The position numbers were made by a program, and so were the translations under genes. From positions 1-16,314 of the IMG/VR virus record IMGVR_UViG_2695420398_000002: a stretch of DNA of 16,314 bases. One strand, 5' to 3'. Shown in pieces: positions 1,221 through 16,314 of the stretch. Under the pieces are notes generated by a model that saw only the letters and a program-made list of their open reading frames with translations, was not told where the DNA came from and did no database searches. The number at the start of each line of letters is the position of its first letter. The stretch's first letter is position 1. This DNA is from a virus (lineage: Duplodnaviria; Heunggongvirae; Uroviricota; Caudoviricetes).

Positions 1221-1363
1221 AGCGTCTTTACCTTTTAGAAAGTGAGCCTGTCTCACAGAAAAGCCGCCCGAGAGAGGTCGCCACCTATAACGGCATTTCT
1301 CAGGCTCGCTTACTGAAAGGCTCTCGTTAATATGCGCGTGAGATGCGCGTTTACTGCGGACAT

Positions 1364-1386
1364 AAAAAAGCCCCGCATCGCGAGGC
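1364..1386 (-). terminator. Rho-independent terminator downstream of Rz
   Basis: On the minus strand GCCTCGCGATGCGGGGC (6-bp GC stem with one G-U pair, 5-nt loop) is followed by TTTTTT. Confidence 0.5.
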
Positions 1387-1418
1387 TCATTAAATTGACT
1401 TTGTGATTTGCAAAAAAA

Positions 1419-1886
1419 TTATTTCAGGCATTGCGTCCTGATGTACTCCTGAAGCGTTCTCAGTGCTGTTTGGTCACGGATAATTCCGTCCCGGATACCG
1501 AGAACGTTTCGTCCAGCAACTGGAGAGAGTTCGACGGTGGCATCATTGCCCATGCCGGAGGCGCTGGAGGTTTCGGCTGAGGATGGCACAGAGCATTTTC
1601 CTTTGACGAGCACCCGACCACCATTATCAAGCTTGCGCCGAAGAGCATCATTTTCAGCTTTCGCATCAGCCAACTCCTTCGTGTATTTAGCATCGAGTAC
1701 ATCAGCAGCACGCTGGCGTTGCTGCATGTCAGTAATGGTGGCGGTCGCCTGCTTCAGCTCACTGACTTTTTTATCACGCTGCTCTTTGTAGGCGATGGCG
1801 TTATCACGGTAATGATTAACAGCCCATGACAGGCAGAGGATGATGCAAATAACCAGAGCGGAGATAATCGCGGTTACCCTGCTCAT
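1419..1886 (-). CDS. Rz: Spanin inner-membrane subunit (i-spanin) Rz
   Basis: N-terminus [16 protein letters not shown]...[10 protein letters not shown] is near-identical to lambda Rz as recalled, with a coiled-coil body; ATG at 1886 overlaps the endolysin stop (ATGA). Confidence 0.85.
1460..1666 (-). CDS. Rz1: Spanin outer-membrane lipoprotein (o-spanin) Rz1, embedded in the +1 frame of Rz
   Basis: [21 protein letters not shown] has a lipobox (VVGC) and is followed by a proline-rich stretch PKPPAPPAW, as in lambda Rz1; the gene lies wholly inside Rz. Confidence 0.75.
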
Positions 1887-2380
1887 TGCTGCCCCCACAA
1901 ACAGACTTCACGCTCAATATCACGACGGGTCATCAGCCCTTTCCATTGCTTACCGCCAGCGTATGTCCAGCGACGTAGCTGGTCACATGCGCCTTTGATA
2001 TCACCCTGGTTTATTTTGCGAAGAAGCGTCGATGTTCTGAAATTACCAGCGCCCACGTTGTAAACGAACGAGTAAAGAGCGCCGCGCGTTGTTTCCGGTA
2101 TATCGACGTTGATGTACGGGTTAATTTGTCTGGCGACCGTGGCAAGGTCTTTATTCAAGAGTGCTTTGCATTCTGCTTCGGTATACGTTTTACCGGGCAT
2201 GATGTCTTTTCCGGTGTGTCCGTGACATACAGTCCATACGCCAACGATATCTTCGTATGGTATGTAGCTGACACCTTCCAGACCATCGTTACCACCTGGA
2301 CCAGTGATGAGCACAGACGCTATGGCAACAGCCCCACCACCAATAGCAGCTGCAACAGCCTTGCGTAATGACGGCGACAT
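1883..2380 (-). CDS. R: SAR (signal-arrest-release) endolysin, phage 21 R21-type lysozyme
   Basis: N-terminal weakly hydrophobic Gly/Ala-rich SAR segment ([21 protein letters not shown]) followed by a lysozyme core; near-identical to phage 21 R as recalled. Its start overlaps the holin stop. Confidence 0.9.
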
Positions 2381-2586
2381 TATTCACCTCTCGCAGCCTT
2401 ACGCTTATCTTCTTTAATCTTGAAATAAAGATTTGTCAGATACGTCAGCAGGCCAAACAGCAGACTTCCCAGCACACCTATTGCCACCCACTGGGACGGA
2501 GAGACTTTGTCCAGCAGCTGCAGTAACCAGTATCCCGTCCCCACCGCTGACGTGGTGTATGACACACCTGTTGTGATTTTTTCCAT
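2380..2586 (-). CDS. S: Pinholin, phage 21 S21-type
   Basis: 68-aa protein with two TM segments and a charged C-terminus ([13 protein letters not shown]), near-identical to S21 as recalled; GGAGA Shine-Dalgarno upstream. Confidence 0.9.
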
Positions 2587-2630
2587 CTGATGTATGTCTC
2601 CGTCACCGCCGACAGAAAATGAAAGTAAAG

Positions 2631-2667
2631 AAAAACAAAAAAGCCGCCAGTGTCACCCACTGACGGC
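2631..2667 (-). terminator. Strong Rho-independent terminator about 45 nt upstream of the holin start (tR'-like)
   Basis: Minus strand GCCGTCAGTG-GGTGA-CACTGGCGGC (10-bp stem including one G-U pair) followed by TTTTTTGTTTTT. Confidence 0.6.
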
Positions 2668-2841
2668 CAACACCGGGAGCCGTGATTATGGCATTCAGGC
2701 TCTGCTAAAAATGCCAGATAACATTCCGGCCTCCCCCGATTCAGGTTATAAATGACACAATATCTTGACAACATCCGTCACTGTCTGTCAGAAAATGTAC
2801 TGCCATATAGAAGCAACATGTGAAGTACATCTATCCTTTTG

Positions 2842-2884
2842 AGCCAGCACCTCTCCACCGAAAGTCAGTGCTGGCTGTTTTTTT
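2842..2884 (+). terminator. Plus-strand hairpin plus T7 run (terminator-like), copy A of a tandem module
   Basis: AGCCAGCAC ... GTGCTGGCT 9-bp inverted repeat with a 17-nt loop, followed by GTTTTTTT; about 45 nt downstream of a TTGACA -35 element at 2765-2770. Confidence 0.4.
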
Positions 2885-2991
2885 CCTTAATAAAGCATCT
2901 GTAACTGAAACAATCCGCATATTGATAATATATTGACAGGCATCATTGCTGTCTGTGAAAAATAAGTCTCTACAAACATATAAGGCCTTTT

Positions 2992-3033
2992 AGCCAGCGT
3001 CTTCTTTTTCAGGTCAGTCGCTGGCTTTTTTTA
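2992..3033 (+). terminator. Plus-strand hairpin plus T7 run (terminator-like), copy B of a tandem module
   Basis: AGCCAGCG ... CGCTGGCT 8-bp inverted repeat with a 19-nt loop, followed by TTTTTTT; preceded by TTGACA at 2933-2938. The T-run abuts the nanS stop codon. Confidence 0.4.
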
Positions 3034-4884
3034 TTATGCTGCCGGTGCATTTATCTCCAGCACCAGACTTTCTATCTCAACGCCATACGCTGCATTTTTT
3101 GTAACATCCGTCAGCGTCAGCGCATTCAGTCCCAGTGTCAGACTGTCTTTTATAACCTGGAATGCCGGGCCAGCCACTCCATTCAGTTTCGGAGTAACCG
3201 TGGCACTGCCGGCGGTGAACACCAGCTCCAGCGTCTGCCAGTCGTTACCGTAATCGCCGAACTCCCCCAGCTTCGTGTTTCCGGCTTTCCTGTGATGCAT
3301 CAGATTCACTCTGCCGTCAGTGGTCTGAGTGAAGTACGACATCAGGAACGGATTACCGGTACCCGTCATCGCCACACCATCAGGAACGGGAGCATCCGTA
3401 TACAGATAAATCCCCAGCCCGAACTGATTGTTGGTCAGTGCGCCTGACAGGCGGAACTTACAGGTCAGTCTGCCGCCCTGTGTCAGCAGGGTAATTGCGT
3501 CATCCACCGGATGCGTCAGGGACCAGGTTTTATTGCTCTGCTTGGTGATCTTAAATACACCATCTGACAACTGAATTCCGCCATCCTTAATGCTCCAGCC
3601 CTGCGCAGCAGCCTCTCCGGCTGCCGGCAGCAGGGAGATTGTGCGAACGGACGTATCTGCAGACGGACCCGATGGCGTGTTGCCGCCGGGCGAGGGTTTG
3701 ATTTCCGGTGCCTTACCACTGATGAAGGCTGAGGTGCGCCCGGCTGCGTTCAGAATAGCGGTTGCCAGACGATCCGGAATAATGCTCCTGCGCGCCCATG
3801 AACTGAAATGTGTCGGGCGGTTTGATGATACCTGGTTTCCATTCGTTCTCGATGCCGCACCGTAATATCCTGATGCCGGAATATCCGGATCTTCTGCCGG
3901 CGCGTTAGTGGCGGTATTGACGCCGTTACCGTCTGTCATGAAGGGCACAAAATAAACGCCCTCACTCTCCCTGTTTTTATACCCGCCGTACACGGTGTCG
4001 TACTGGGTAGCGTATGTATTTTTCCAGTAATACGTCGTGTCACCACAAATCCACGGCACATCTACAGCGCTGCCACCATGGCACTGCGCGTTAAACACGG
4101 AGAGGTCAGCACGAAACTGTGTCAGCATGGCTGTAAACAGCGCAGGTTGCTGTGCGTGGGTGGCGGCACTCATGTCAAACTCACCCTGCATCCAGCAGAC
4201 GGCCAGCAGAACGTTTTTGGGATTTTTCTGCAATGCCGCTTTTGTGCGGGAAATCAGATCCTGATATAACGGCTTGCCCACCCCCCAGCGTGCCGAATCC
4301 TGACTGGCCCCCGTGGACTCGCTGAATGTCCCCTCCGCGCCCTGGGTAAATGCCGAACCACCACGACAGCATGGTACCAGCAGGATCCCCGCGTTATTCG
4401 GGATATACGGGAGCAGTTTTTTGGCAATATGTAAACCCTGGCCGACACAGCCGTACTGCCCTTTGCTCAGGTCAGCCCTCGGATGATTCAGCGTACTCAT
4501 ATCCTGCACATCATGCAGACAGTGGTCAGCCGGAATAATATCGTTATATCTGCAGGCAGCCCCGCCCGGCGTCACTGTACTGCGGCGCGCCAGCTGTTTA
4601 ATGCGCGGATCCGGAGCATCGTATGAATCCGGCAGCGGAAGCCCTTCACCGTAAGCCATGGCATTGGACTGCCCGGCCAGTACGATGACGTAGTACCAAT
4701 CCGGCTCAGATGAAGGGCCGACCTGTGGCTCTCCTTCAATAGCCACCGCCTGCATCAGTGTGTACGGCGTAATGGCAACCGGTCCGCCGTATGGCTGCCA
4801 GCCCTCTTTCAGTTTGTGTGTCAGCTTTTCCGCAAGGTCTGACGGCGACGCCGCCCTGACAACATCGTAATGTTTAATCGACAT
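3034..4884 (-). CDS. nanS: Prophage sialate O-acetylesterase, NanS-p-like (DUF1737-like N-terminus plus SASA/SGNH esterase domain)
   Basis: 616-aa ORF with a GQSN esterase motif (YVIVLAGQSNAMAYGEG) and strong GGGAGAAA Shine-Dalgarno; sits between Q and the lysis genes, as NanS-p does in Stx and related prophages. Confidence 0.75.
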   Translation of the reverse strand: MSIKHYDVVRAASPSDLAEKLTHKLKEGWQPYGGPVAITPYTLMQAVAIEGEPQVGPSSEPDWYYVIVLAGQSNAMAYGEGLPLPDSYDAPDPRIKQLARRSTVTPGGAACRYNDIIPADHCLHDVQDMSTLNHPRADLSKGQYGCVGQGLHIAKKLLPYIPNNAGILLVPCCRGGSAFTQGAEGTFSESTGASQDSARWGVGKPLYQDLISRTKAALQKNPKNVLLAVCWMQGEFDMSAATHAQQPALFTAMLTQFRADLSVFNAQCHGGSAVDVPWICGDTTYYWKNTYATQYDTVYGGYKNRESEGVYFVPFMTDGNGVNTATNAPAEDPDIPASGYYGAASRTNGNQVSSNRPTHFSSWARRSIIPDRLATAILNAAGRTSAFISGKAPEIKPSPGGNTPSGPSADTSVRTISLLPAAGEAAAQGWSIKDGGIQLSDGVFKITKQSNKTWSLTHPVDDAITLLTQGGRLTCKFRLSGALTNNQFGLGIYLYTDAPVPDGVAMTGTGNPFLMSYFTQTTDGRVNLMHHRKAGNTKLGEFGDYGNDWQTLELVFTAGSATVTPKLNGVAGPAFQVIKDSLTLGLNALTLTDVTKNAAYGVEIESLVLEINAPAA

Positions 4885-4970
4885 CGAATTTCTCCCGTGT
4901 ACAGGAACAGAGTTAAAAAGCCGGAACCGGAATCAAATCACAGGATGACCATCTGCCAGTGGCAGGTCAT

Positions 4971-4997
4971 AAAAAAAAGGCCGCGCCATGCGCAGCC
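4971..4997 (-). terminator. Rho-independent terminator about 90 nt upstream of nanS
   Basis: Minus strand GGCTGCGC-ATG-GCGCGGCC (8-bp GC-rich stem, 3-nt loop) followed by TTTTTTTT. Confidence 0.55.
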
Positions 4998-5183
4998 AGA
5001 ACTCACAAGGAAAATGATAGAAGGAAATAACATTAGTGATGTACGCATGGCGCCTCCCGCTAAGTTCTGCAATGATCAAACAGAACTCGCTACGTGCCCT
5101 TAAAACTCGATCATTTAGCCCCTCCAAGGAGGATTCACCATGCGGTTGGTTTTTTAATAAACAGTAAACAAAAAAGTCAAGAA

Positions 5184-5294
5184 TTATTCATTCTGTTCTT
5201 TCATCATCGGCCACAGCAATACCACAATGCCGCAGACCAGAGCGCCATCAGTCAGTACCAACATTATCCTGCTGGTGAAATCCATCATCACCAT
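5184..5294 (-). CDS. Candidate small hydrophobic protein (36 aa, MVMMDFTSRIMLVLTDGALVCGIVVLLWPMMKEQNE)
   Basis: ATG-initiated ORF found by manual translation; single predicted TM helix; no clear Shine-Dalgarno. Could be a chance ORF. Confidence 0.2.
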   Translation of the reverse strand: MVMMDFTSRIMLVLTDGALVCGIVVLLWPMMKEQNE

Positions 5295-5427
5295 CACTAA
5301 AAGCAGGATCACAACAGCAAGCAGACACAGTTTATAAAACAATGTTCAGAAAACGCATTCAGCATGCCTAAGGTTCTATTCCTACGAATAGCCAACTTGC
5401 AACTTAAAATATTATTTATGCAGCCAA

Positions 5428-6186
5428 TTAAATTCTGGTCCTTACAATATCAACCTGAAGATTCTTATCTTGTGCTGATTGATAAATCACAAACCTTTTA
5501 CTACCTGCATTGAAAGAAGTAGACAAAACCAGACAATTATCATAACGAGCAAGAACATAATACCAACCATCATTATAATTAATCATTTCATATTCTTTCT
5601 TAAACTGTGGTTTGTAATATCCTGTCAGAAATGAAAAAAGCCAGAAATATGCCACAAAAGCAATCATCACAATCTCAAAAAAATGTTTTTTTATAAATGG
5701 CTTATCATAGAAGCATGATACCGATAAAAATCGCCCATAAGATCTTATCGAAATTGTAACCGCCAGCGCAATCGCTGCTGACAGTAGCAAAAGAGGTACC
5801 TGAATCTTCTGTCTCAATATAGAAAACTCAATAATTGCCGGCACAAACAATAATTCCACAGCAAAATAAAGGCGAAATACATTTAGCTCTTGCATAGAAT
5901 GTTTTCTTTTCACTGCGAAAAAGAATACAACACCAATACCCCAACCGATAAGAAATATAGCAATGACGATAACTGCAAAAAATAAACTTCTGGCAACATC
6001 ATCAACACCTGCACCTACAATCCACCATGGGAAGCCGTAGTAAAAAGAAGTACCCCATCCATAGAAATAAGCACTCCCCCATCCAAGGCATCCCATGTAG
6101 GCAATAAAAAGTGAAGAACTCCTGAGCAGCGCACCATCCTTCATAACCACCCCAATACAAGATGATAACATTGGCTTACAACTCAT
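5428..6186 (-). CDS. Hypothetical polytopic inner-membrane protein (252 aa), AT-rich moron immediately downstream of Q/pR'
   Basis: Long ATG-initiated ORF with 4-5 strongly hydrophobic segments and a roughly 70-aa hydrophilic C-terminal tail; visibly AT-rich relative to flanking lambda-like genes; no family recognised. Confidence 0.7.
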   Translation of the reverse strand: MSCKPMLSSCIGVVMKDGALLRSSSLFIAYMGCLGWGSAYFYGWGTSFYYGFPWWIVGAGVDDVARSLFFAVIVIAIFLIGWGIGVVFFFAVKRKHSMQELNVFRLYFAVELLFVPAIIEFSILRQKIQVPLLLLSAAIALAVTISIRSYGRFLSVSCFYDKPFIKKHFFEIVMIAFVAYFWLFSFLTGYYKPQFKKEYEMINYNDGWYYVLARYDNCLVLSTSFNAGSKRFVIYQSAQDKNLQVDIVRTRI

Positions 6187-6344
6187 AACAAAAGCAATTC
6201 AATGCCGTCAAGAGGTTACAGGCTAAAAAAACTCTATTACATTGCAGTCAGCATGTTTACTACACAAATACAATTCAGAGCATAAAAACTACTCGGCGGC
6301 AGGTTATTGAGACTCATCAATGACATGTAAAAAACGCCCATTAT

Positions 6345-6381
6345 TGGTGTCAAGTTTCCCCAAAGTTATTCAAAAAGTCAA
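6345..6381 (-). promoter_or_regulatory. Late promoter pR' with overlapping qut region
   Basis: Minus strand TTGACTTTTTGAATAACTTTGGGGAAACTTGAC aligns with lambda pR' (TTGACTTATTGAATAAAATTGGGTAAATTTGAC as recalled): -35 TTGACT, 17-nt spacer, degenerate -10 GAAACT; it starts about 40 nt after the Q stop. Confidence 0.55.
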
Positions 6382-6423
6382 TATTATGCCGTTAATATGT
6401 TGCCATCCGTGGCAATCATGGCG

Positions 6424-7047
6424 CTAACGTGTGATCGCATTCAAAATGTTGTCTGCGATTGACTCTTCCTTGTGGCATTGCACAACCAGAGCGTCATACA
6501 GCGGCTTAACAGTGCGTGACCAGGTGGGTTGGGTAAGGTTTGGGATTAGCATCGTCACAGCGCGATATGCGGCGCTTGCTGGCATTCTTGAATAACCGAC
6601 GCCTTTACATCTTCCGCACTCTTTCTCAGCAACTATCCCCCACTGCTCTGTTTTGGCTATATCAACCGCACGGCCTGTACCGTGGCAATCTCTGCATCTT
6701 GCGCCCGGCGTAGCGGCACTACGGCAATAATCCGCATAAGCGAATGTTGCGAGCACTTGCAGTACCTTTGCCTTAGTATTTCCTTCAAGCTTTGCCACGC
6801 CACGGTATTTCCCCGATACCTTGTGTGCAAATTGCATCAGATAGTTGATAGCCTTTTGTTTGTCGTTCTGGCTGAGTTCGTGCTTACCACAGAATACAGC
6901 CATTCCGAATCCGGCTTGTGATTGCGCCATCCCCATAGCAGCCATCACATCAGTACCGGAAAGAGAGTCAGAAGCCGTGGCCCGTGGTGAGTCGCTCATC
7001 ATCGGGCTTTTTGGCGAATGAAATTTAGCTACGCTTTCGAGTCTCAT
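6424..7047 (-). CDS. Q: Late-gene antiterminator Q (lambda-type)
   Basis: 207 aa, essentially identical to lambda Q as recalled, including the CRDCHGTGR...CGRCKGVG zinc-binding region. Confidence 0.95.
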
Positions 7048-7709
7048 GCGCCTTCTCCCTGTACCTGAATCAATGTGAGATTTCCGCAGAACACTGCCCC
7101 AGTATCGATATACATCTGGTTGGCAAATTTGAGTGGTTTCACTGCTGGCGTATGACCAAAGATAAACGTGTCCGCGCCTTTAATTTCTTTAACGATCCCG
7201 TCTTGTGAGTTGCTGATTCGTTCGCGGTTCCAGATTACCTGCTGATGATCAACTGGCTTTCCAAATTCGTATTCGTCACAAGGATAATCGGCGTGGCAGA
7301 TGACATATTTTTTACCTTTGCTCACCAGTTCGATGATTAACGGAAGTTCTTCTGCTTTATGGGCAAGAGCTTTAGCCAGAATTTCTTTGTCGTAATCGAG
7401 ATTAAAGAACCAGCCACCGCCATTAAGCAGCCAGTGATTAACGTTTCCACGCTCTGATAAGCCATCAATCATCATTTGCTCATGGTTTCCACGTACAGCT
7501 CTGAACCAGGGGAATGTGATTAATTCCAGGCATTCAACGTTCTCTGCACCACGATCAACCAAATCGCCCACCGAGATAAGCAGGTCTTTTTTGTTGTCGA
7601 ATCCAATCGTATCCAGTTTGTTCATCAGGTTCGTGTAGCATCCGTGCAGATCGCCAACTACCCAAATATTTCGGTATTTGCTGCCATCAATTCTTTCGTA
7701 GATATTCAT
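7044..7709 (-). CDS. ninI: Ser/Thr protein phosphatase (lambda PPase, NinI/orf221)
   Basis: 221 aa with GDLHG, GDLVDRG and GNHE metallophosphatase motifs; near-identical to lambda orf221 as recalled. Confidence 0.95.
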
Positions 7710-8320
7710 GCAGCCTCACTTCTGCTGTTTCGCAGTTTTTTAAGTTTCTGTTGATACTCCGCCTTGATGGTCCTGCACTCTTCGACAGTCCAGCGATGGC
7801 GGTTATGGTTTGATTCGATTTCGTCTACTGCTTCCTGCCCGATGCGGCTAATCAGTTCGACGCGATACGGAACGAGATTTCCGCTTTTGTGCTGGTTGCA
7901 CACCACGCATTGCTTGTGAATATTGCGTTCATCAAATCGGAGTTGAGGTGCCGCAGCAGTTGTCCGGTAATGTCCGGCATCCCACTGAGCAGACGTGAGC
8001 GTTCCGCACGAGATACATGGTAAGTCGCGGTCTCTTTCTCTGATGAAGGCGTTTACGGCTTGTTGGGCTTGTTTAATCCAGTAACTGCGGGGCTTTAAGG
8101 CGAGTTTTCGAATCTTAAGTTTATCTTTCTGTTTCTGCTCCTCTCGTCGTCGTTTCTTCTCTGCTGCTTTTTCCGCTTTTTCGCGTTCTTTACTTCGTCG
8201 TTCGAGTGCTATCTTGGTTCCACACTCTGGAGAGCACCACCACTGATTAGCGAATGCAGGGTGAAACCATTCCCGACATTCATCGTTTTTACATCGTCTT
8301 CGCGCTGGTTTAGCCATCAT
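7706..8320 (-). CDS. ninG: NinG/Rap recombination-promoting nuclease
   Basis: 204 aa ([22 protein letters not shown]...) near-identical to lambda NinG as recalled; overlaps the phosphatase start. Confidence 0.9.
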
Positions 8321-8522
8321 CTTCTTCCTCGTGCATCGAGCTATTCGAATCGCTCATCAGCTCTGCACAGCAGTGCTCACACACGTGAACTTCCAGCACA
8401 TGCAGCTTCTGACCGCAATTAGCGCACGTTAAAGCCCGCTCGACGCTTTCTTGTTCGTAACTTCGATTTGGGTCAATCACCTTGTATTCCTCGCACGATG
8501 TCTTAGCCACCGGATATCCCAC
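8310..8522 (-). CDS. ninF: NinF-like zinc-ribbon protein (start uncertain; longest ORF begins with GTG)
   Basis: C-terminal part [34 protein letters not shown]...HEEEDDG matches lambda NinF as recalled; the N-terminal extension differs and no in-frame ATG is available. Confidence 0.65.
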
Positions 8523-8659
8523 AGGTGAGCCGTGTAGTTGAAGGTTTTTACGTCAGATTCTTTTGGGATTGGCTTGCGTTTATTTCTGGAGCGTTTCGTT
8601 GGAAGGTATTTGCAGTTTTCGCAGATTATGTCGGTGATGCTTCGTCGCTGTCGTCTCAT
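8477..8659 (-). CDS. ninE: NinE
   Basis: From the internal [37 protein letters not shown]... matches lambda NinE as recalled; its start overlaps the methyltransferase stop (ATGA). Confidence 0.8.
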
Positions 8660-9183
8660 GCAGCCCTCCTGACGCCCTGCCCGATCGCCATCAATGCCGC
8701 TTTGGATACGGTAGTAAACATCCGTCGAGGACTGATGAACGGTCGCCAAATCAGCAGCATGGAGCCTTTGCTGTTTCCCTTCTTCTCCAGCCCTGTCGAT
8801 GGTTCGATAAAATTAATCCGTCCATCAGTGATAATACGAACTTCGTCAACACTCTCCAGAGCCTTGCTGAACCATCCGACAGACATATCCTCTGGCACAA
8901 GCATCACTACCGTCTGTCGCTGTTGTATACACTGCTCAGCGGCTTTTTCCACCCACGGCCTGATATTGCTGTACGGTGGGTTATTCCAGATTGCACCGTG
9001 GCTTACCCACTCAGAATTGAGCGCGTCGTCGTCCTCAGTTAGCCAGTGAGCGCACAGAGCGTTTTTGTCGCTCGCTGCCGAATCCAGCCAGAATCCAAAC
9101 TCAATATCCAGTGCATCAAAAAGCCAAAGCGGCGTTTGCCAGCAGTCCTTGTCGTGTGCTGGCGTATTTGATTTGATAGTCAT
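8656..9183 (-). CDS. Phage DNA N6-adenine methyltransferase (Dam-like, NPPY motif)
   Basis: WQTP...LD.EF...LDSAAS...WNNPPYS motif set typical of phage Dam-family MTases; occupies the ninC/ninD position; start overlaps the ninB stop (ATGA). Confidence 0.8.
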
Positions 9184-9620
9184 GCAGCCCGATCTCCCCA
9201 TCGCGCTTTCCATTCGAGAGCCAGTCGCGCTTCGTCTGACCACTTAACGCCACGCTCTGTACCGAATGCCTGTATAAGCTCTAATAGCTCCGCAAATTCG
9301 CTTACACGCATCCTGCTGGTTGACTGGCCTATTACCACAAAGCCATTCCCGGCAAGGTTAGGAACAACATCCTGCTGCTTTAATGCTGCGGTAAACACAC
9401 ACTTCCAGCTTTCTGCATCCAGCCAGCGACCATGCCATTCAACCTGACGAGAGACGTCACCTAAGCAGGCCCATAGCTTCCTGTTTTGGTCTAAGCTGCG
9501 GTTGCGTTCCTGAATGGTTACTACGATTGGTTTGGTTGGGTCTGGAAGGATTTGCTGTACTGCGTGAATAGCGTTTTGCTGATGTGCCGGAGATCGAATT
9601 TCAAAGGTTAGTTTTTTCAT
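9180..9620 (-). CDS. ninB: NinB (recombination protein)
   Basis: MKKLTFEIRSPAHQQNAIHAVQQILPDPTKPIVV... near-identical to lambda NinB as recalled; GGGAGAGGGAAG Shine-Dalgarno before the ATG at 9620. Confidence 0.9.
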   Translation of the reverse strand: MKKLTFEIRSPAHQQNAIHAVQQILPDPTKPIVVTIQERNRSLDQNRKLWACLGDVSRQVEWHGRWLDAESWKCVFTAALKQQDVVPNLAGNGFVVIGQSTSRMRVSEFAELLELIQAFGTERGVKWSDEARLALEWKARWGDRAA

Positions 9621-9636
9621 GACTTCCCTCTCCCCC

Positions 9637-9668
9637 AAATAAAAAGGCCTGCGATTACCTGCAGGCCT
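9637..9668 (-). terminator. tR2-like Rho-independent terminator between ren and ninB
   Basis: Minus strand AGGCCTGC-N8-GCAGGCCT (8-bp stem) followed by TTTTTATTT; same location as lambda tR2. Confidence 0.65.
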
Positions 9669-9693
9669 GTGATTAGCTCAGTGATGTAGATGG

Positions 9694-9984
9694 TCATCTT
9701 TTAACTCCATATACCGCCAATATCCGTTTCATCGTGGCACTCTGGCGACACTCCTTAAAAATCAGGTTCGTGCTCATCTTTCCTTCCCGTTCTTCCTTGG
9801 TAGCAAACCGGTAATACACCGTTCGCCAGACCTTACCTTCGATAACCAGAAGACCTGCCCGTGCCATTTTAGCCGCGGCCTGATTTATGCTGGTTACTGT
9901 TGCGCCTGTTAGCGCGGCAACGTCCGGCGCACAGAAGCTATTATGCGTCCCCAGGTAATGAATAATTGCCTCTTTGCCCGTCAT
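9694..9984 (-). CDS. ren: Ren (Rex-exclusion resistance protein)
   Basis: 96 aa, near-identical to lambda Ren as recalled. Confidence 0.9.
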   Translation of the reverse strand: MTGKEAIIHYLGTHNSFCAPDVAALTGATVTSINQAAAKMARAGLLVIEGKVWRTVYYRFATKEEREGKMSTNLIFKECRQSATMKRILAVYGVKR

Positions 9985-10682
9985 ACACTTGCTCCTTTCA
10001 GTCCGAACTTAGCTTTAATTTCTGCGATCTTCGCCAGCGCCTGAACACGATTTAGAGGTCTGCCGCCCATGACAGGAAGTTGTTTTATTGGTTCAGGTAT
10101 CGTCTCACCACGGTTAATTCGCGCTGTCATACAGGTCAGTTCATCGGCAGCCTTGCGTCGTAATTCCGCGTCAGTCAGCGCATTGGCCCGCATGTTCTGG
10201 TACAGGTTGGTAACCAGCCAGTAGTGCGCGTTCGATTTCCACGGATAAGACTCTGCATCCGGATACAGGCCTCGCTTCCGGCAATACTCGTAAACCATAT
10301 CAACCAGCTCGCTGACGTTTGGCAGTCCGGCGATAACGGATGCTTCTTCCCGGCACCATGCAACAAACTGCCCGGGTGATGGCAGAAATGGTCGATTCTG
10401 CCGACGGGCTACGCGCATTCCTGCGTTAACCTGTTCCATTGTGGTGATCCCGTTTTCCCGGAAAGCCAGAACCCACTGGCGGCGGATTTCGTTCAGTTCG
10501 TTCTGGTCACGGTTAGCCAGGCTCGCCGGGAAAGTTGCCAGTAACTGGCTGAACACACCGTTGATGATCTGCGCTACCTGCTGTACCTGAGGCTTTTCGT
10601 CGTACTGTTCCGGCATGTTGTTGGCGATCCGACGCATCTGCTCACGGTCAAAGTTAACCATCTGTGCGGCGATGTTTTTCAT
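9981..10682 (-). CDS. P: Replication protein P (DnaB helicase loader)
   Basis: 233 aa, near-identical to lambda P as recalled; overlaps the O stop. Confidence 0.95.
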   Translation of the reverse strand: MKNIAAQMVNFDREQMRRIANNMPEQYDEKPQVQQVAQIINGVFSQLLATFPASLANRDQNELNEIRRQWVLAFRENGITTMEQVNAGMRVARRQNRPFLPSPGQFVAWCREEASVIAGLPNVSELVDMVYEYCRKRGLYPDAESYPWKSNAHYWLVTNLYQNMRANALTDAELRRKAADELTCMTARINRGETIPEPIKQLPVMGGRPLNRVQALAKIAEIKAKFGLKGASV

Positions 10683-11578
10683 AAATCCACCCCGTAAATC
10701 CAGTCAGTGTTTGTCAGGTCGAGTTTTGGTTTGCAGGCTGTCACGCCTGCCTGTTGCTTGTTACGGTTGATTTCGAGCTGGGTCCACTTGTCGCGGAGTT
10801 TGGCCGGGCTCAGCACGTTACCGGACCAGAAGTTGTCCTGGCATGCCCAGCGGAACAGTACACACATGTCGCGATGGTTACGTCCGTCACGTTCACGCAT
10901 CAGGCGGATATCGTTAGCCCACCCTGCAAAATTCGGTTTTCTGGCTGATGGCGCGATGGTCTTCACCATGTCAAACATCCACTCTGCGGCGGTCAGATCT
11001 TCTGCTGTCCCCCACCTGCTGCCGCTCTGAATTGCAGCATCTGGTTTCTCCACAGAAAGATCGTTTTCTGGCTGGTCAGAGGATTCGCCTGAATTCTCTG
11101 ACGAATAATCTTTTCTTTTTTCTTTTGTAATAGTGTCTTTTGTGTCCCCCTGTTTTGAGGGATAGCAATCCCTCAATTTGAGGGATGTTTTATCCCTCGT
11201 TTTAGGGGATTTTCCCTCGTTTTGAGGGATACACCATTCTGAGATGTTTTTATTTGGTCCAAACATGCCGCCTTGCTGCTTGATAATATTCATTCTGACG
11301 AGTTCTAACTTGGCTTCATTGCACCGTTTGACGGGTAACTTTGTAATCTCGCTAAGTTGAGAATCGGTGATTCTGTCCATTGGTTTATTCCACCCATAGG
11401 TTTTACGCAGAATGGCAAGCAGCACTTTAAACTGTCGCTTGGTCAGATCTGCGCCTGAATAAGCCTCAAGCAGCATATTTGATAGTCTGACGTAACCATC
11501 ATCGAGATCTGCCACATTACGCTCCTGTTCGGCAAAGTTACCTCTGCCGAAGTTGAGTATTTTTGCTATATTTGTCAT
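10679..11578 (-). CDS. O: Replication initiator O
   Basis: 299 aa, lambda O-like; contains the ori iterons internally; AGGAG Shine-Dalgarno upstream. Confidence 0.95.
   Translation of the reverse strand: MTNIAKILNFGRGNFAEQERNVADLDDGYVRLSNMLLEAYSGADLTKRQFKVLLAILRKTYGWNKPMDRITDSQLSEITKLPVKRCNEAKLELVRMNIIKQQGGMFGPNKNISEWCIPQNEGKSPKTRDKTSLKLRDCYPSKQGDTKDTITKEKRKDYSSENSGESSDQPENDLSVEKPDAAIQSGSRWGTAEDLTAAEWMFDMVKTIAPSARKPNFAGWANDIRLMRERDGRNHRDMCVLFRWACQDNFWSGNVLSPAKLRDKWTQLEINRNKQQAGVTACKPKLDLTNTDWIYGVDL
11105..11229. repeat. ori: Lambda-type origin: four about 17-bp iterons (TCCCTC-N5-GAGGGA family) at 11145-11162, 11169-11185, 11193-11209 and 11213-11229, plus adjacent AT-rich region 11105-11144
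   Basis: Four tandem near-palindromic repeats with 20-24 bp spacing inside the O gene, followed in the O sense by an A/T-rich tract, as in ori-lambda. Confidence 0.85.
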
Positions 11579-11610
11579 AATGACTCCTGTGGATTGATCC
11601 AGTAATTCCC

Positions 11611-11907
11611 TCAGAATTGCATATCAATTTGCTTAAAATCCTCGGTGGCAGCCGGGGATTTTTTCTTTGTGATTTCATCAAGCGCATACTTAAAAGCCCT
11701 GCTAATCGGACTGATGTCTGATGCCATTCCGAAAGCACACAAGACCGAAGCAATAAACCGCCAGTCCGTTCTGCTTATCTTCGATTCATGACAGCCAATC
11801 ATCTTTGCCAGACCACGCTGGGTAAGCGTTGACAGGTTGATGAGTAAATCTGTTTCTGCGCGATCAACGTCACGCTGTGATAGTTTGCTGTAACTTGTTT
11901 GTTCCAT
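11611..11907 (-). CDS. cII: CII-like transcriptional activator
   Basis: 98 aa; an HTH segment (KISRTDW) and C-terminus KKKSPAATEDFKQIDMQF parallel lambda CII (KKRPAATERSEQIQMEF as recalled); lies between cro/nutR and O. Confidence 0.7.
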   Translation of the reverse strand: MEQTSYSKLSQRDVDRAETDLLINLSTLTQRGLAKMIGCHESKISRTDWRFIASVLCAFGMASDISPISRAFKYALDEITKKKSPAATEDFKQIDMQF

Positions 11908-11944
11908 TTCTTAAGATTTCCAATAGTGAATAGTTAGTTGAAAG

Positions 11945-11963
11945 GTATGCGTGGAAACGCATA
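11945..11963 (-). terminator. Possible tR1-like hairpin between nutR and cII
   Basis: Minus strand ATGCGT-TTCC-ACGCAT (6-bp stem) followed by ACCTTTC; weak U-tract, which would fit a partial or Rho-assisted terminator. Confidence 0.3.
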
Positions 11964-11990
11964 TGGCCTTAGTTGGTCAGATATCTTGGG

Positions 11991-12038
11991 GCTCGCTTTT
12001 CAGCGACGTAGGACGAATGTCCGTTGTTACAAAGAGCG
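11991..12038 (-). promoter_or_regulatory. nutR: nutR: boxA (CGCTCTTTG) plus boxB hairpin (TCGCT-GAAA-AGCGA) with an intervening small hairpin
   Basis: Minus strand CGCTCTTTGTAACAACGGACATTCGTCCTACGTCGCTGAAAAGCGAGC directly downstream of cro; the same architecture recurs at nutL. Confidence 0.5.
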
Positions 12039-12048
12039 GCTCCGCTTA

Positions 12049-12264
12049 TTAAGCGGCTTTGTGCTCCGGCGGGAACACGTCATCAAGACTTACTTTTGCG
12101 CCTAACTTGTTTAGACACGCAACAAGAGCACGGCATGTTTTAAGGTCTGGGAAGCGACGACCAGATTCCCAATGTCCGATAGCTCCCTGTGTGCATCCAA
12201 CTGCCTTAGCAAGTGTTGTTTGAGAGATATTCAGTGACTCTCGATATTTTCGTAGGTTGCTCAT
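12049..12264 (-). CDS. cro: Cro-like repressor (XRE-family HTH)
   Basis: 71 aa from the ATG at 12264 with GGAGGG Shine-Dalgarno; [23 protein letters not shown] resembles the cI HTH; divergent from cI. Confidence 0.8.
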
Positions 12265-12375
12265 ATGCCCTCCATAGTAACCATGAAGAAAAAAATACAA
12301 TATGTACTTTTTGAATGCAAGCAAAAATACACATTGTGCATGGATGGTTGCAATACAGAGCGTAATAATAAGGAC
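12265..12375. promoter_or_regulatory. Right operator/promoter region (OR; pR towards cro, pRM towards cI)
   Basis: Operator-like dyads TAC-N5-GTA at 12295-12307 (aTACaatatGTAC) and 12327-12339 (aTACacattGTGC); candidate pR on the minus strand with -35 TTGCTT (12319-12324) and -10 TATTGT (12297-12302). Confidence 0.65.
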
Positions 12376-13035
12376 ATGAAAATGAAATGGTATGAACTGG
12401 CTAGATCCAGAATGAAAGAGCTCGGCATAACTCAAGAGAAGTTAGCCGAAGAGCTAGGTATGACGCAGGGTGGGATTGGACACTGGTTGCGCGGATCTCG
12501 TCATCCATCTCTTAGTGATATTGGTGTGGTGTTTAAATACCTTGGTATTGATAACATATCATTCAACCACGACGGGACATTTTCACCTGTTGGCGAATAC
12601 TCATCGGCCCCAGTTAAAAAACAATATGAGTACCCTGTTTTTTCTCATGTTCAGGCTGGGATGTTCTCTCCAGAACTCAGAACCTTTACCAAAGGCGATG
12701 CGGAGAGATTGGTAAGCACAACCAAAAAAGCCAGTGACTCTGCATTCTGGCTTGAGGTTGAAGGTAACTCAATGACCGCCCCAACAGGTTCCAAACCTAG
12801 TTTTCCTGACGGGATGTTAATTCTGGTTGACCCAGAGCAAGCTGTTGAGCTCGGCGATTTCTGCATAGCCAGACTTGGTGGTGATGAATTTACCTTCAAG
12901 AAACTGATCAGGGATAGCGGTCAGGTGTTTCTACAGCCACTAAATCCACAATACCCAATGATCCCATGCAATGAGAGTTGTTCCGTTGTGGGGAAAGTTA
13001 TCGCTAGTCAGTGGCCTGAAGAGACGTTTGGGTGA
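12376..13035 (+). CDS. cI: CI prophage repressor (N-terminal HTH plus C-terminal LexA-like S24 autopeptidase domain)
   Basis: Start chosen at the ATG at 12376 with AAGGA Shine-Dalgarno; [23 protein letters not shown]; C-terminal domain has the GNSM serine motif and a downstream Lys (FTFKKL). Not lambda cI, so a different immunity type. Confidence 0.85.
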
Positions 13036-13115
13036 TGGATGGCAAACCTCATAATGAATAACTTTAGCGAGTTGGCGACAAACTATCCACATTATATTAA
13101 TATAAGGGAAAATCG

Positions 13116-13958
13116 ATGAGTAAGTTCGGGTGTGATATGAGTAGGCAAATTACTGTTTTCGATGACACATCACAGTTAACATTTGATGATTTCGCTAGAG
13201 AAAACGGTGTTACCTATTGGTTTGCATCTGATTTAGCGATGATGCTTGGATATAATGGCATGGATCAGATATTGAAAGCCATTAACAAAGCTACATCTGT
13301 ATGTGTGAGCCTCGATATCCCTGTATACGATAACTTCATCCAGATGCCTTCAGAAAATGCGAAAAATGACTTTAAATTAACTCGTTTCGCTTGTTATCTG
13401 ATTGTAATGAATGGTGACATCAGCAATCAAAAAGTTGCAAATGCACAAGCTTATTTTGCTGGGCTCGCAGCAGAAATACACACTACATATCATAACCATG
13501 ACGCAGTTAATCGAGTTTATTTGCGTGGCGAGATTACATCTAGAGAGAAAACTCTCAGTCATGTAGCCCATAAACACGGAGTAGTCGACTATGGTCTATT
13601 TCAAAATGCGGGCTACCGTGGGATGTACAATATGAATCTCTCACAGTTGAAAGCTCGAAAAGGCCTAACTAAAAAAGATGGAACGATGCTTGACTTCATG
13701 GGAAGCGAAGAGCTCGCGGCCAATATATTCAGAATTACACAGACAGAAGCAAGAATCAGAAACCAGAACCTGAAGGGACAGTCTCAACTAGAGAATGCTG
13801 CTGAGACCGTAGGGAGATCTGTTCGCAATGTAATGATTTCTAACACTGGAACAGCCCCTGAAAACATAAAACTTTCCCAAGAAAAAATTCAGAAAGTTAG
13901 AAGCAGCATTAAGAAAACTCATAAAGCCCTAGCAAAGCACGACCAAAAAAAACCATAA
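13116..13958 (+). CDS. DinD-like protein (DNA-damage-inducible protein D family) at the rexAB position
   Basis: 280 aa with AAGGGAAAA Shine-Dalgarno; motifs FACYLIVMNGD and KGLTKKDGTMLDFMGSEELAANIFRITQTE resemble E. coli DinD as recalled from memory (unverified). Confidence 0.6.
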   Translation: MSKFGCDMSRQITVFDDTSQLTFDDFARENGVTYWFASDLAMMLGYNGMDQILKAINKATSVCVSLDIPVYDNFIQMPSENAKNDFKLTRFACYLIVMNGDISNQKVANAQAYFAGLAAEIHTTYHNHDAVNRVYLRGEITSREKTLSHVAHKHGVVDYGLFQNAGYRGMYNMNLSQLKARKGLTKKDGTMLDFMGSEELAANIFRITQTEARIRNQNLKGQSQLENAAETVGRSVRNVMISNTGTAPENIKLSQEKIQKVRSSIKKTHKALAKHDQKKP

Positions 13959-13966
13959 ATGCATAC

Positions 13967-13992
13967 CCCGGCCTCAGCGCCGGGTTTTCTTT
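13967..13992 (+). terminator. Rho-independent terminator after the DinD-like gene
   Basis: CCCGGC-CTCAGC-GCCGGG (6-bp GC stem) followed by TTTTCTTT, 9 nt after the stop codon. Confidence 0.65.
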
Positions 13993-14132
13993 GCCTCACG
14001 CCCCCACCTAAAGACACATAACCAAATGTATTTATTGAAAAATAAATAGATACAACTCACTAAACCACGCAATTCTGATCTCTCCTTACATCGCCGAGGC
14101 GATACACCCACGCTAAAAAACAACACTATTAA

Positions 14133-14206
14133 ATACAAAGTGTTATAAAAAATCACCCTATTTTAGAACAAATCGTATTGACCCAATAAAGTACATATCG
14201 TACTAT
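14133..14206 (+). promoter_or_regulatory. pL promoter with left operators (OL)
   Basis: -35 TTGACC (14178-14183), 17-nt spacer, -10 TACTAT (14201-14206); operator dyads GTACatatcGTAC (14191-14203, overlapping the promoter) and aTACaaagtGTTA (14133-14145) match the OR motif. Confidence 0.65.
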
Positions 14207-14252
14207 TTAACCGTCAGCAGGACGCTGGAAGCCAAACGGAACAGACTGGCAG

Positions 14253-14298
14253 GCTCTTTAAACAACGTCGAACTCTCGACTACGTGGCTGAAAAGCCA
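14253..14298 (+). promoter_or_regulatory. nutL: nutL: boxA (GCTCTTTA) plus boxB hairpin (TGGCT-GAAA-AGCCA)
   Basis: GGCTCTTTAAACAACGTCGAACTCTCGACTACGTGGCTGAAAAGCCA between pL and N; parallels nutR in sequence and spacing. Confidence 0.55.
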
Positions 14299-14396
14299 GA
14301 TCACCCAACCACATGAGCTGTGGGATGCAATGCCGAAGCAACCGTCTCAGGAGGAGCTTCGAGATTGCATCACCAAAGTTTATTCGGGAGGAATCT

Positions 14397-14669
14397 ATGT
14401 CCAGAAAAACAGAATTTAAAGGCACCTCAGCTTCTCGTCGTAGAGCTCGTCGCGCAAACCTGCAAAGTCAGGAGGCGATTAGCTCCGACAAGCTACACAG
14501 ACCAACCCCCTCTCGAGTGGTCTTGCAATGCAAGCGCAAACCAGCAATGAGAGCAGAAGTAATAACACTGACAACGTTGACCAGAAAATATGAAGGCTCA
14601 ACTTGTCTTCCGAACGTAGCTCTTTACGCGGCAGGCTACCGGAAATCCAAACAACTGACAGCAAAATGA
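14397..14669 (+). CDS. N: Antitermination protein N (arginine-rich motif); reading frame ends prematurely relative to the conserved C-terminus, which is encoded in another frame at 14666-14719
   Basis: ATG at 14397 with GGGAGG Shine-Dalgarno; ARM SASRRRARRA near the N-terminus; RKPAMRAE parallels lambda RKPKSRVE. The 17 codons MTCVGRQKMKLGSKPLI matching the lambda N C-terminus (ITCSGRQKIKGKSIPLI as recalled) lie in a different frame. Confidence 0.7.
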   Translation: MSRKTEFKGTSASRRRARRANLQSQEAISSDKLHRPTPSRVVLQCKRKPAMRAEVITLTTLTRKYEGSTCLPNVALYAAGYRKSKQLTAK

Positions 14670-14730
14670 CTTGTGTTGGTCGCCAGAAAATGAAATTAGG
14701 CAGCAAACCACTTATTTGAGAGAAATTAAT

Positions 14731-15354
14731 ATGTCATCAATCCGCTTAACAACGAGAATGAAAGAGATAATCGCTCGTAACGCTTTAATTAAGTCTGGGG
14801 TTTTCACTGAACTTAAAGAAGTAACAAAGTTAAATAACCAGCTTGCACTTGACGCCAGAGTTGTTGCGTTTGGCGGTAAAAAGAAAACTGAGGAAGTGGA
14901 TCAGTTATCATCCAAGTTAATGGCTATAAGCGAAGAACTTGAAAAGCTGGGATGTTCATTTTACTCATGCGATGCCCGTTCAACTTCAATTTATCTGACT
15001 GTATCTGGCAGAAGGGTTGGCTGGTATTCATATGGGAAAGACGGCAACGGCGAAGATATATTGCTCCCTACTCCGACCAAAGATAAATGCATGTTTAGCG
15101 CAGAACACGAAATAACAAAAAGGTTTGATGAAATCTGCGCATTGCAACAAAAACTTGAAGCCAAGAAAAAGGATATCGAATCAAATGTATGGGCTGCTTT
15201 GAACTCAGTCACAACAGTTAAGCGACTTATTGAAGTTTGGCCTGAAAGCAAAGAGTTGCTACCAAAAGAAGCAGATAAAGCAAGTACAGCACTTCCTGCT
15301 TTACGGGTAGAAGATTTGAATAAGATGATTGGACTTCCTTCCGAGGTCGCATAA
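14731..15354 (+). CDS. Hypothetical protein (207 aa), soluble, between N and ea10 at the ral/sieB position
   Basis: ATG-initiated ORF; no hydrophobic segments; charged, coiled-coil-like stretches; AT-rich; no family recognised. Confidence 0.65.
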   Translation: MSSIRLTTRMKEIIARNALIKSGVFTELKEVTKLNNQLALDARVVAFGGKKKTEEVDQLSSKLMAISEELEKLGCSFYSCDARSTSIYLTVSGRRVGWYSYGKDGNGEDILLPTPTKDKCMFSAEHEITKRFDEICALQQKLEAKKKDIESNVWAALNSVTTVKRLIEVWPESKELLPKEADKASTALPALRVEDLNKMIGLPSEVA

Positions 15355-15398
15355 TCGTCCTTTATTTTTGGCATAAACAACAGAATAAACACTGCACT

Positions 15399-15426
15399 GT
15401 GTATTCATTCCAACGAGTGAATACAC
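15399..15426. other. Perfect 9-bp inverted repeat with 10-nt spacer (GTGTATTCA-N10-TGAATACAC)
   Basis: Read directly from the sequence, 45 nt after the stop of the 207-aa ORF; candidate protein-binding dyad or RNA hairpin. Confidence 0.4.
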
Positions 15427-15488
15427 GGAGCAATGTCGCTCGTAACTAAACAGGAGCCGACTTGTTCTGATTATTGGAAATCTTCTTT

Positions 15489-15516
15489 GCCCTCCAGTGT
15501 GAGGGCGATTTTTTAT
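15489..15516 (+). terminator. Rho-independent terminator (tL-like) just upstream of ea10
   Basis: GCCCTC-CAGTGT-GAGGGC followed by GATTTTTTAT. Confidence 0.55.
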
Positions 15517-15534
15517 CTATGAGGATATGAATAG

Positions 15535-15903
15535 ATGTCAAACATCAAAAAATACATCATTGATTACGACTGGAAAGCATCAATAGAAATTGAAATCGAC
15601 CATGACGTAATAACAGAGGAAAAACTTCACCAGATTAATAATTTATGGTCAGACTCTGAATACCGACTCAATAAACACGGCTCTGTATTAAATGCTGTAT
15701 TAATCATGCTGGCGCAACATGCTCTGCTTATAGCAATTTCAAGCGACTTAAATGCATATGGTGTTGTGTGTGAGTTCGACTGGAATGATGGAAATGGTCA
15801 GGAAGGATGGCCTCCAATGGATGGTAGCGAAGGAATAAGAATTACCGATATCGATACATCAGGAATATTTGATCCAGATGATATGACTATCAAAGCCGCC
15901 TGA
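15535..15903 (+). CDS. ea10: Probable Ea10-like early-left protein (122 aa)
   Basis: Same length (122 aa) and same position (immediately before cIII) as lambda ea10; GAGGA Shine-Dalgarno. The sequence itself was not recognised, so the call rests on synteny. Confidence 0.5.
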   Translation: MSNIKKYIIDYDWKASIEIEIDHDVITEEKLHQINNLWSDSEYRLNKHGSVLNAVLIMLAQHALLIAISSDLNAYGVVCEFDWNDGNGQEGWPPMDGSEGIRITDIDTSGIFDPDDMTIKAA

Positions 15904-15975
15904 GCGCGGCGTTACCGCATACCAATTACGCTTCACTCGAGGCGTTTTTCGTTATGTATAAATAAGGAGCACACC

Positions 15976-16140
15976 ATGCAATATGCCATTGCAGGGTGGC
16001 CTGTTGCTGGCTGCCCTTCCGAATCTTTACTTGAACGAATTACCCGTAAATTACGTGACGGATGGAAACGCCTTATCGACATACTTAATCAGCCAGGAGT
16101 CCCGAAAAATGGATCAAACAATTATTGCTATCCAGACTAA
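15976..16140 (+). CDS. cIII: CIII (FtsH/HflB protease inhibitor)
   Basis: 54 aa [48 protein letters not shown]... essentially identical to lambda CIII as recalled; AAGGAG Shine-Dalgarno. Confidence 0.9.
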   Translation: MQYAIAGWPVAGCPSESLLERITRKLRDGWKRLIDILNQPGVPKNGSNNYCYPD

Positions 16141-16273
16141 ATTCACTATCGCCACTTTTATTGGCGATGAAAAGATGTTTCGTGAGGCCGTCGACGCTTA
16201 TAAAAAATGGATATTAATACAGAAACTGAGATCAAGCAAAAGCATTCACTACCCCCCTTTCCTGTTTTCCTAA
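16109..16273 (+). CDS. kil: Kil (host cell-division inhibitor)
   Basis: Starts at an internal ATG overlapping the cIII 3' end by about 32 nt, as lambda kil does; synteny between cIII and gam. Confidence 0.75.
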
Positions 16274-16314
16274 TCAGCCTGGCATTTCGCGGGCGATATT
16301 TTCACAGCCATTTT
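16207..16314 (+). CDS. gam: Gam (RecBCD inhibitor), 5' part only; continues past the window end
   Basis: [34 protein letters not shown]... matches the N-terminus of the long form of lambda Gam as recalled. Confidence 0.9.

Follow-up and report, generated by a model that had tools for sequence, protein, structure and literature searches.

The window analysed here is a stretch of 16,314 nucleotides (nt) covering positions 1 to 16,314 of IMG/VR virus record IMGVR_UViG_2695420398_000002, a lambdoid prophage segment that is 97.6% identical to phage 2B8 over 85% of its length and is also close to phage 434. As judged by sequence comparison, an open reading frame (ORF) on its plus strand, at 14731..15354, is almost certainly a stand-alone member of the phage Nmad5 family, held as an accessory cassette in the slot of the lambda-type leftward (pL) operon where relatives carry ral. 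A sequence-only reading of this DNA had called the encoded protein unrecognised and without a motif, a description that fails: the protein is annotated already and is an ordinary member of a known, functionally dark family. The sequence feature is not new and, because the family is already catalogued, the gene itself is not a new find. As to its role, we favour at a probability of roughly 0.4 the reading that it is a non-enzymatic early protein that would act by binding, as an adaptor, in counter-defence or host takeover.

The identity of the family is given by several catalogues. The ORF product matches Pfam PF18757 (Nmad5) end to end, with E = 4.7e-70 and 236.3 bits against a gathering cut-off of 27, residues 4-203 covering model positions 1-206 of 206, and it matches PHROG 1965, a group of unknown function, with E = 1.4e-80. 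PF18757 corresponds to InterPro IPR040835, 'Nucleotide modification associated domain 5', with which the window protein shares the size of about 200 amino acids (aa), the single domain and the conserved motifs; specifically, it has the stand-alone form of about 200 aa with G93, T162-x-K, L166, W170-P-E, L196-N197 and G201-x-P. Homologues are called 'Nmad5 family putative nucleotide modification protein' in NCBI RefSeq, a 99.8%-identical copy is already annotated in E. coli UTAK-6, and the gene appears under this RefSeq name in 211 of 5426 complete E. coli genomes. The name itself derives from gene neighbourhoods shared with base-modification genes, that is, from guilt by association. A profile search returned 2418 cluster representatives at 50% identity, nearly all of 190-220 aa and matched over their full length, and no second Pfam domain was present among the approximately 190 homologues listed, including those from a second search for fusions with a 64-sequence profile. 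The ORF product had no match in an NCBIfam scan, none to the 5027 defence models of PADLOC-DB v2 at E up to 1, and none to Ral (PF11058) in a Pfam scan at E up to 1. In the literature searched, a demonstrated biochemical activity was found for no Nmad5 member, and the searches returned no functional study of the family beyond one (PMC11846954) that is discussed below.

The ORF is a real gene under purifying selection. Among 65 DNA alleles from 80 related IMG/VR prophage loci the median ratio of nonsynonymous to synonymous polymorphism (pN/pS) is 0.28 over 1363 allele pairs, and the 207-aa frame is intact in 78 of the 80 copies; the damaged copies comprise one with a nonsense codon at position 3 (L019) and one 204-aa form shortened at the C-terminus (L086). 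In the window the gene begins with ATG at 14731 and ends with TAA at 15354, and its 207 codons specify a protein of 23.1 kDa with an isoelectric point (pI) of 8.25, the assignment drawing on Pfam, PHROG, the RefSeq name, selection and AlphaFold. Its GC content of 40.4%, compared with 47.1% for the window (35% at third codon positions), bears out the earlier description of an AT-rich 207-aa ORF lying after N at these coordinates. The annotation of Kapi1 starts instead at an in-frame TTG at 14671, 60 nt upstream, to give 227 aa; we reject this start because alignment with the family puts the N-terminus at the ATG, and what the 20 additional codons represent is a remnant of N read in another frame. 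The ribosome-binding site (RBS) upstream of the ATG (14714-14730) reads GAGAGA in the window and GAGAGG in both SH2026Stx1 and Kapi1, so that translation initiation may be weaker in the window copy.

The cassette character of the gene is best seen at its borders. In phage 2B8, ral lies between the same junctions in place of Nmad5: the window and 2B8 run collinearly as far as the end of N, and identity resumes directly after the Nmad5 stop codon. These collinear flanks uphold the earlier placement of the ORF at the ral position of the pL operon. Ral is the restriction alleviation protein of lambda, a modification enhancer for type I systems, and although it shares with the window protein the interval from the 3′ end of N to bsq4/tL2A, and is exchanged for it exactly in 2B8, the two proteins (66 and 207 aa) have no sequence relationship. 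The left junction (14667..14730, plus strand) consists of a relic that derives from the 3′ end of a different N allele and reads out of frame, ending in CVGRQKMKLGSKPLI and a stop, together with the GAGAGA of the RBS. In a three-way DNA alignment, the window, SH2026Stx1 and Kapi1 become abruptly identical from TGACTTGTGTTGG, at about position 14667; the N gene of SH2026Stx1, a different allele, genuinely ends with this stretch, which makes up its final 50 nt (ending in VTCVGRQKMKLGSKPLI and a stop), and the relic at 14667-14719, which follows the stop of the resident N directly and out of frame, is identical to that C-terminus. In 62 of the 80 related loci the 64 nt preceding the ATG show an identity of at least 90%. 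From these comparisons the relic is a recombination scar that travels with the Nmad5 cassette.

The right junction is a bsq4-type boundary sequence (15355..15486, plus strand) that holds an inverted repeat at 15389-15436, with two 22-nt arms (15389-15410 and 15415-15436) that are 82% complementary around a 4-nt loop; the perfect 9-base-pair (bp) repeat pointed out in the sequence-only reading at 15399-15426 is its core. As RNA the repeat forms a 14-bp hairpin, and the fold of the 180-nt spacer has z = -4.8 relative to shuffles; a scan against Rfam found the cIII thermoregulator only and no match within this spacer. An intrinsic terminator homologous to lambda tL2A follows at 15487..15516 (plus strand), its 8-bp stem (15487-15508, 5 G-C pairs) preceding a run of T, and so the terminator earlier placed at 15489-15516, ahead of ea10, is likewise present. 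The significance that had been attached to these flanking elements for the gene does not survive. The 180-nt spacer occurs in 329 phage records irrespective of the upstream gene, and the Sf6 record, which has ral annotated too, labels it 'bsq4; boundary sequence' and 'terminator, homology to phage lambda; tL2A'. Because the spacer is found whatever lies upstream, the inverted repeat and the terminator belong to the lambdoid backbone and are not features of the gene. On the same grounds (2B8, the 329 records and Sf6), we considered and rejected the inverted repeat as an Nmad5-specific regulatory site.

It is informative to examine what else occupies this slot. Using the exact boundary-repeat sequence as an anchor, we collected 118 IMG/VR contigs (L113-L230), 94 of which had a readable ORF ending at the boundary. 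Sixteen unrelated ORF families end at the boundary repeat in these 94 contigs, the commonest being Ral (32 contigs; the identity of the 66-aa occupant was confirmed by Pfam with E = 1.6e-48), then a 156-aa family (16), a 149-aa family (10), Nmad5 (9) and smaller groups. The 156-aa protein (beginning MTKSWSVPFPESETEH) has no Pfam match and is also found directly after Nmad5 in about 10 of the 80 loci; the 149-aa protein (beginning MEEQANKILVELL) has hydrophobic stretches and, again, no Pfam match. Among the 80 Nmad5 loci, both the upstream N allele and the downstream gene are highly variable. In addition, Nmad5 is missing from the close relatives 2B8 and 434, and in about 48 genomes of Stx2a-converting phages it is split near codon 35 by an IS3-family insertion sequence (IS) whose ORFs encode 108 and 296 aa and whose terminal repeats start with TGAACCGCCCCGGG. 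In the Stx2a phage LC616077.1 (L111) this insertion occupies 680-2080, at a point equivalent to window position ~14833; a related record annotates IS629 at the insertion site, and the element is probably IS629. Disruption in so many Stx2a phage genomes indicates that Nmad5 is dispensable, and the split copies are natural knock-outs of the gene.

The surroundings of the gene suggest when it would be expressed. The pL operon reads on the plus strand of the window, in the order cI-like repressor, Bro-N protein, terminator, pL-like promoter, N, Nmad5 ORF, spacer, ea10, cIII and kil. The putative sigma-70 promoter (14178..14206, plus strand; TTGACC-17-TACTAT, 9 of 12 consensus positions) is the only plus-strand promoter-like site that a consensus scan found within 13900-16314, and it is placed as pL is in lambda, with the cI-like repressor, the Bro-N gene and a terminator (13967-13984) ahead of it; as read from the sequence, it would drive N and the Nmad5 gene. 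Beyond it lies a nutL-like element (14253..14280, plus strand), read from the sequence as a boxA-like GCTCTTTAAACAA followed by a boxB-type hairpin at 14267-14280; the hairpin was also found by the terminator and promoter scan, and the nutL assignment, made by analogy with lambda, is putative. The N antitermination protein (14397..14669, plus strand, 90 aa; Pfam PF25694 N_peptide, E = 1.5e-31 over residues 1-89) ends in translation with LPNVALYAAGYRKSKQLTAK and a stop, and 61 nt (14670-14730) separate its stop from the Nmad5 ATG. Downstream of the spacer, Ea10 (DUF2528; 15535..15903, plus strand; Pfam PF10800, E = 3.4e-45) begins the conserved ea10-cIII-kil segment, in which cIII begins with an intact cIII thermoregulator (Rfam Lambda_thermo, 15963-16021, plus strand, 88.5 bits). 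Nmad5 would be transcribed from pL together with N and, since no terminator-like site lies between the pL-like promoter and 15487, expression would be expected at the very start of lytic growth; in a repressed prophage the gene would be silent.

The protein itself offers few conventional handles. It has no transmembrane segment (maximum Kyte-Doolittle value of 0.61 in a 19-residue window; grand average of hydropathy -0.3), as the sequence-only reading had stated, and it carries a net charge of +2, its pI of 8.25 lying near the family median of 7.8. Two AlphaFold runs, built on alignments of 21 and 41 sequences, agree with one another (mean predicted local distance difference test, pLDDT, of 86.2 and 87.5; predicted template modelling score 0.70-0.71) and place helices at 8-22, 24-47 and 50-72, a small beta-hairpin region at 86-100 plus short strands, a long helix at 127-158 that pairs back, and short helices around 163-183. 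Overall, the prediction is of a coiled-coil stalk of helices into which a small beta-hairpin is inserted. The remote-homology and structure searches recommended at the outset placed the protein in the Nmad5 family by profile; Foldseek found no PDB relative of the model (best E = 0.38), PDB sequences searched by profile yielded coiled-coil noise only (E above 0.6), and in BFVD the structural matches were all to other Nmad5 proteins. Nor did the structure searches reveal a fold like those of known replication or recombination proteins.

Conservation, assessed in alignments of 21, 64 and 41 members, is concentrated in a few positions. Of all positions, only G93, L166 and N197 never vary across the 64 diverse members; I14, A18, G48, T162, W170, P171, E172, L176, P178, L196 and G201 are conserved in at least 90%, P203 in 87% and K164 in 78%. 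No constellation of the catalytic type (His, Asp, Cys or Ser) is found among the conserved positions of these 64. After the WPE helix, the best-conserved stretch is the tail, LPAL-x-V-x-DLN-x-x-IGLP, and this is precisely the part that the monomer model cannot place: residues 183-207 have pLDDT of about 50 in both models, though they include some of the most conserved residues of the protein, and the run with the deeper alignment of the two, which looked for packing of the tail on the core, left them at low confidence. This pattern suggests that the tail may be an interaction peptide or an oligomerisation element.

It is also worth considering where distant members of the family reside. In YuA/M6-type phages, whose thymidine-hypermodification clusters have been described (PMC9476957), Nmad5 lies between genes for the 5-hydroxymethyldeoxyuridine (5-hmdU) DNA kinase and aGPT-Pplase and the gene for a dUMP hydroxymethylase; YuA gp15 and the M6-type proteins have a C-terminal module homologous to that of the window protein (32-44% identity over residues 121-207), although the window phage, unlike them, has no such pathway. 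A Z-genome phage has Nmad5 between genes for DNA polymerase and for exonuclease, PurZ and a dATP/dGTP pyrophosphohydrolase; in Salmonella phage SPN3UB it follows a DpdA-like transglycosylase in the nin region; a temperate phage has it two genes away from an MT-A70 methyltransferase, within a pL-like operon whose last gene is that for single-stranded DNA-binding protein (SSB); and in an N4-like phage it follows ThyX in the replication module. Elsewhere there are no modification genes nearby, as in a Dhillonvirus, where Nmad5 is on the opposite strand inside the head module, and in a Mu-like phage, where it is inside the tail module; other members are found among small unknown early genes. The modification pathways that adjoin distant members have no common chemistry. 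Co-occurrence of Nmad5 with phage Dam or with dATP/dGTP pyrophosphohydrolase showed no enrichment, and a profile search of genome contigs with a narrower alignment yielded 8 loci, too few for neighbourhood statistics.

The only phenotype connected with the family comes from Dhillonvirus mutants that escape the Tmn defence, in which Yamashita et al. (2025) traced the causal change to Nmad5, K296E in SM_S22 and K216E in SM_A8 (PMC11846954). Reverting the change restored sensitivity to Tmn, deletion of the gene gave no escape, and the Dhillonvirus gene was not clonable and apparently toxic (PMC11846954). The SM_S22 protein (CDS0006) is homologous to the window protein in its C-terminal half, with 31-34% identity and E = 1e-12 to 7e-15, including the K-K/R-L...WPE motif; it differs in its length of 254 aa (334 in the annotation), in the divergence of its N-terminal half and in belonging to a virulent phage. 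In pairwise alignment, K295-K296 of SM_S22 corresponds to K164-R165 of the window protein, which lie in the helix that immediately precedes W170-P-E, and the same holds for Bas84. As for the numbering, the SM_S22 gene (PP627283.1, L112, 5005-6009, minus strand) is annotated with 334 aa, and its first ~69 codons overlap the gene for head scaffolding, which runs on the other strand (5804-6622). Relatives are annotated with 254 aa; the additional 80 aa at the N-terminus are probably an artefact of annotation, and without them K296 would become K216. Reversal of a charge in the best-conserved surface module, with gain of function, is consistent with Nmad5 being a binding protein open to changes of specificity, but is no proof of this.

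How, then, might the lambdoid protein act? Under the reading that we favour, the conserved module T162-x-K-R-L...W170-P-E...L-P and the C-terminal peptide LPAL-x-V-x-DLN-x-x-IGLP would together contact a partner, either a conserved factor of DNA or nucleotide metabolism or a component of host defence, and this engagement would condition or protect incoming and replicating phage DNA; the protein would thereby fill a niche like that of Ral without being related to it. A non-enzymatic role is supported by the want of a catalytic residue set and of any fused catalytic domain, and an accessory one by the scattered placement of the family in pL, nin, N4-like, hypermodification, Z-genome, head and tail modules. 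Several observations pull the other way. What we say of activity, partner and phenotype in lambdoid phages is inferred from sequence comparison; a missing recognisable catalytic site is also compatible with a novel enzyme; and the position beside N is itself guilt by association. Being near neutral, the protein cannot be counted among DNA mimics such as Ocr and ArdA. In 2 of the 118 loci Nmad5 is accompanied by ral, and the two are therefore not strict alternatives, and in about half of the distant contexts Nmad5 is within 1-2 genes of nucleotide- or base-modification enzymes, which favours a role tied to modification. Finally, the relative implicated in Tmn escape is only 31-34% identical to the window protein, in the C-terminal half only, and the authors of that study interpret their result as altered sensing and not as inhibition (PMC11846954).

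A more specific proposal, which we regard as unlikely, is that Nmad5 is throughout its range (~2400 clusters) a non-enzymatic counter-defence factor that binds a defence sensor or a host DNA-modifying or restriction complex, and that lambdoid phages swap it with Ral. The K-R-L...WPE helix and the LN..IGLP peptide would then bind a sensor such as the KAP-NTPase Tmn, Nmad5 would be an alternative to Ral for DNA that is unprotected in the first minutes of infection, and its occurrence beside unrelated base-modification pathways would follow from both being anti-restriction tools. The sequence-only reading had offered anti-defence or exclusion. The anti-restriction and anti-defence part retains a positional argument (the swap with ral, the hypervariable slot and the genetic link to Tmn), the activity itself being putative and argued from position, and the exclusion part is disfavoured, for reasons that follow. 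Exclusion of the SieB kind, in which a protein made in the lysogen aborts infection by other phages, is suggested by the company the gene keeps, given that this slot houses exclusion-type genes in some lambdoid phages, sieB of lambda among them, and that the 149-aa family with hydrophobic stretches fills it in 10 contigs; the toxicity of the cloned Nmad5 homologue could be read likewise (PMC11846954). However, the window protein has no transmembrane segment and no match to the 5027 PADLOC models, and the gene lies within the repressed pL transcript; between 14206 and the ORF a consensus scan, which may miss weak or non-canonical promoters, picked up nothing promoter-like. Moreover, most members of the family are found in virulent phages (N4-like, M6-like and Dhillonvirus), where prophage exclusion is meaningless, and we consider exclusion highly improbable.

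The neighbourhoods that gave the family its name make a better case for a modification helper, a non-catalytic or cryptically catalytic subunit that presents DNA or nucleotides to modifying enzymes, and this is a possibility to be taken seriously even if we doubt it. In the window such a helper would make a DNA methyltransferase of the phage or of the host more active on new phage DNA, in a manner mechanistically like that of Ral for type I systems. In its favour, distant members adjoin 5-hmdU DNA kinase, thymidylate-synthase-like hydroxymethylase (PMC9476957), PurZ, pyrophosphohydrolase, DpdA-like, MT-A70 and ThyX genes; the gene sits in the slot of Ral, a modification enhancer; and the window encodes a phage Dam methyltransferase in the nin region (8656-9243, minus strand; PF05869, E = 5.5e-65). 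Yet the associated pathways are chemically unrelated, some acting before replication and some after it, which makes a common catalytic step unlikely, and neither the conserved residues nor the Dhillonvirus and Mu-like contexts point to modification. The immediate neighbours in the window are N and Ea10 (DUF2528) and not modification enzymes; Dam, the sole modification gene of the window, is 5.5 kilobases (kb) away in the other early operon (pR), is missing from the otherwise close phage 2B8, lies near only 6 of the 80 Nmad5 loci, and accompanies Nmad5 in 1 of 9 cases compared with 8 of 33 for Ral. Some of the same neighbourhoods can be taken to mean that Nmad5 is a replication or recombination accessory, an early DNA-metabolism factor working, for example, with SSB, polymerase or recombinase at forks and having no direct part in defence or modification: most contexts are early DNA-metabolism operons, the window gene is upstream of ea10-cIII-kil-gam-bet-exo, members in N4-like, M6-like and Z-genome phages adjoin genes for DNA polymerase, helicase and SSB, and one is in the pL-like operon that ends in SSB. 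Against this stand the dispensability of the gene, which is IS-disrupted in many Stx2a phages and missing from 2B8 and 434, its presence in only those 211 E. coli genomes, its occurrence inside head and tail modules as well, and the lack of fold similarity noted above; we judge such a role to be quite improbable.

Three other genes of the window deserve mention. In the rexA/rexB position, downstream of the repressor, lies the gene for a Bro-N protein of 280 aa (13116-13958, plus strand, E = 6.3e-8), which the strong terminator at 13967-13984 follows and which is a candidate lysogen-expressed gene; its homologue is named 'NYN domain-containing protein' in the RefSeq record of 2B8 and 'BRO family protein' in E. 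coli RefSeq. Between Q and the lysis genes is an ORF of 251 aa (5428-6186, minus strand) that has no Pfam match. Adjoining it is a 615-aa DUF1737-SASA-DUF6645 esterase (3034-4884, minus strand), intact in the window; phage 2B8 has instead a 'Mobile element protein' gene beside a shorter esterase gene.

Within a large and unexplained family of phage proteins, what this gene adds is a route to function by way of lambda-type genetics, the best system that phage genetics has to offer. The lambdoid Nmad5 is a clean, dispensable single-gene cassette that appears to be expressed immediately after infection, and for which nature has supplied both knock-outs, through IS insertion, and swaps. Furthermore, the only residue in the family that is linked to a phenotype, that of Tmn escape, maps to the conserved basic R165 of the window protein, where it can be mutated directly. 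If Nmad5 does prove to be a counter-defence factor, then the designation "nucleotide modification associated" would mislead the annotation of thousands of phage genes.

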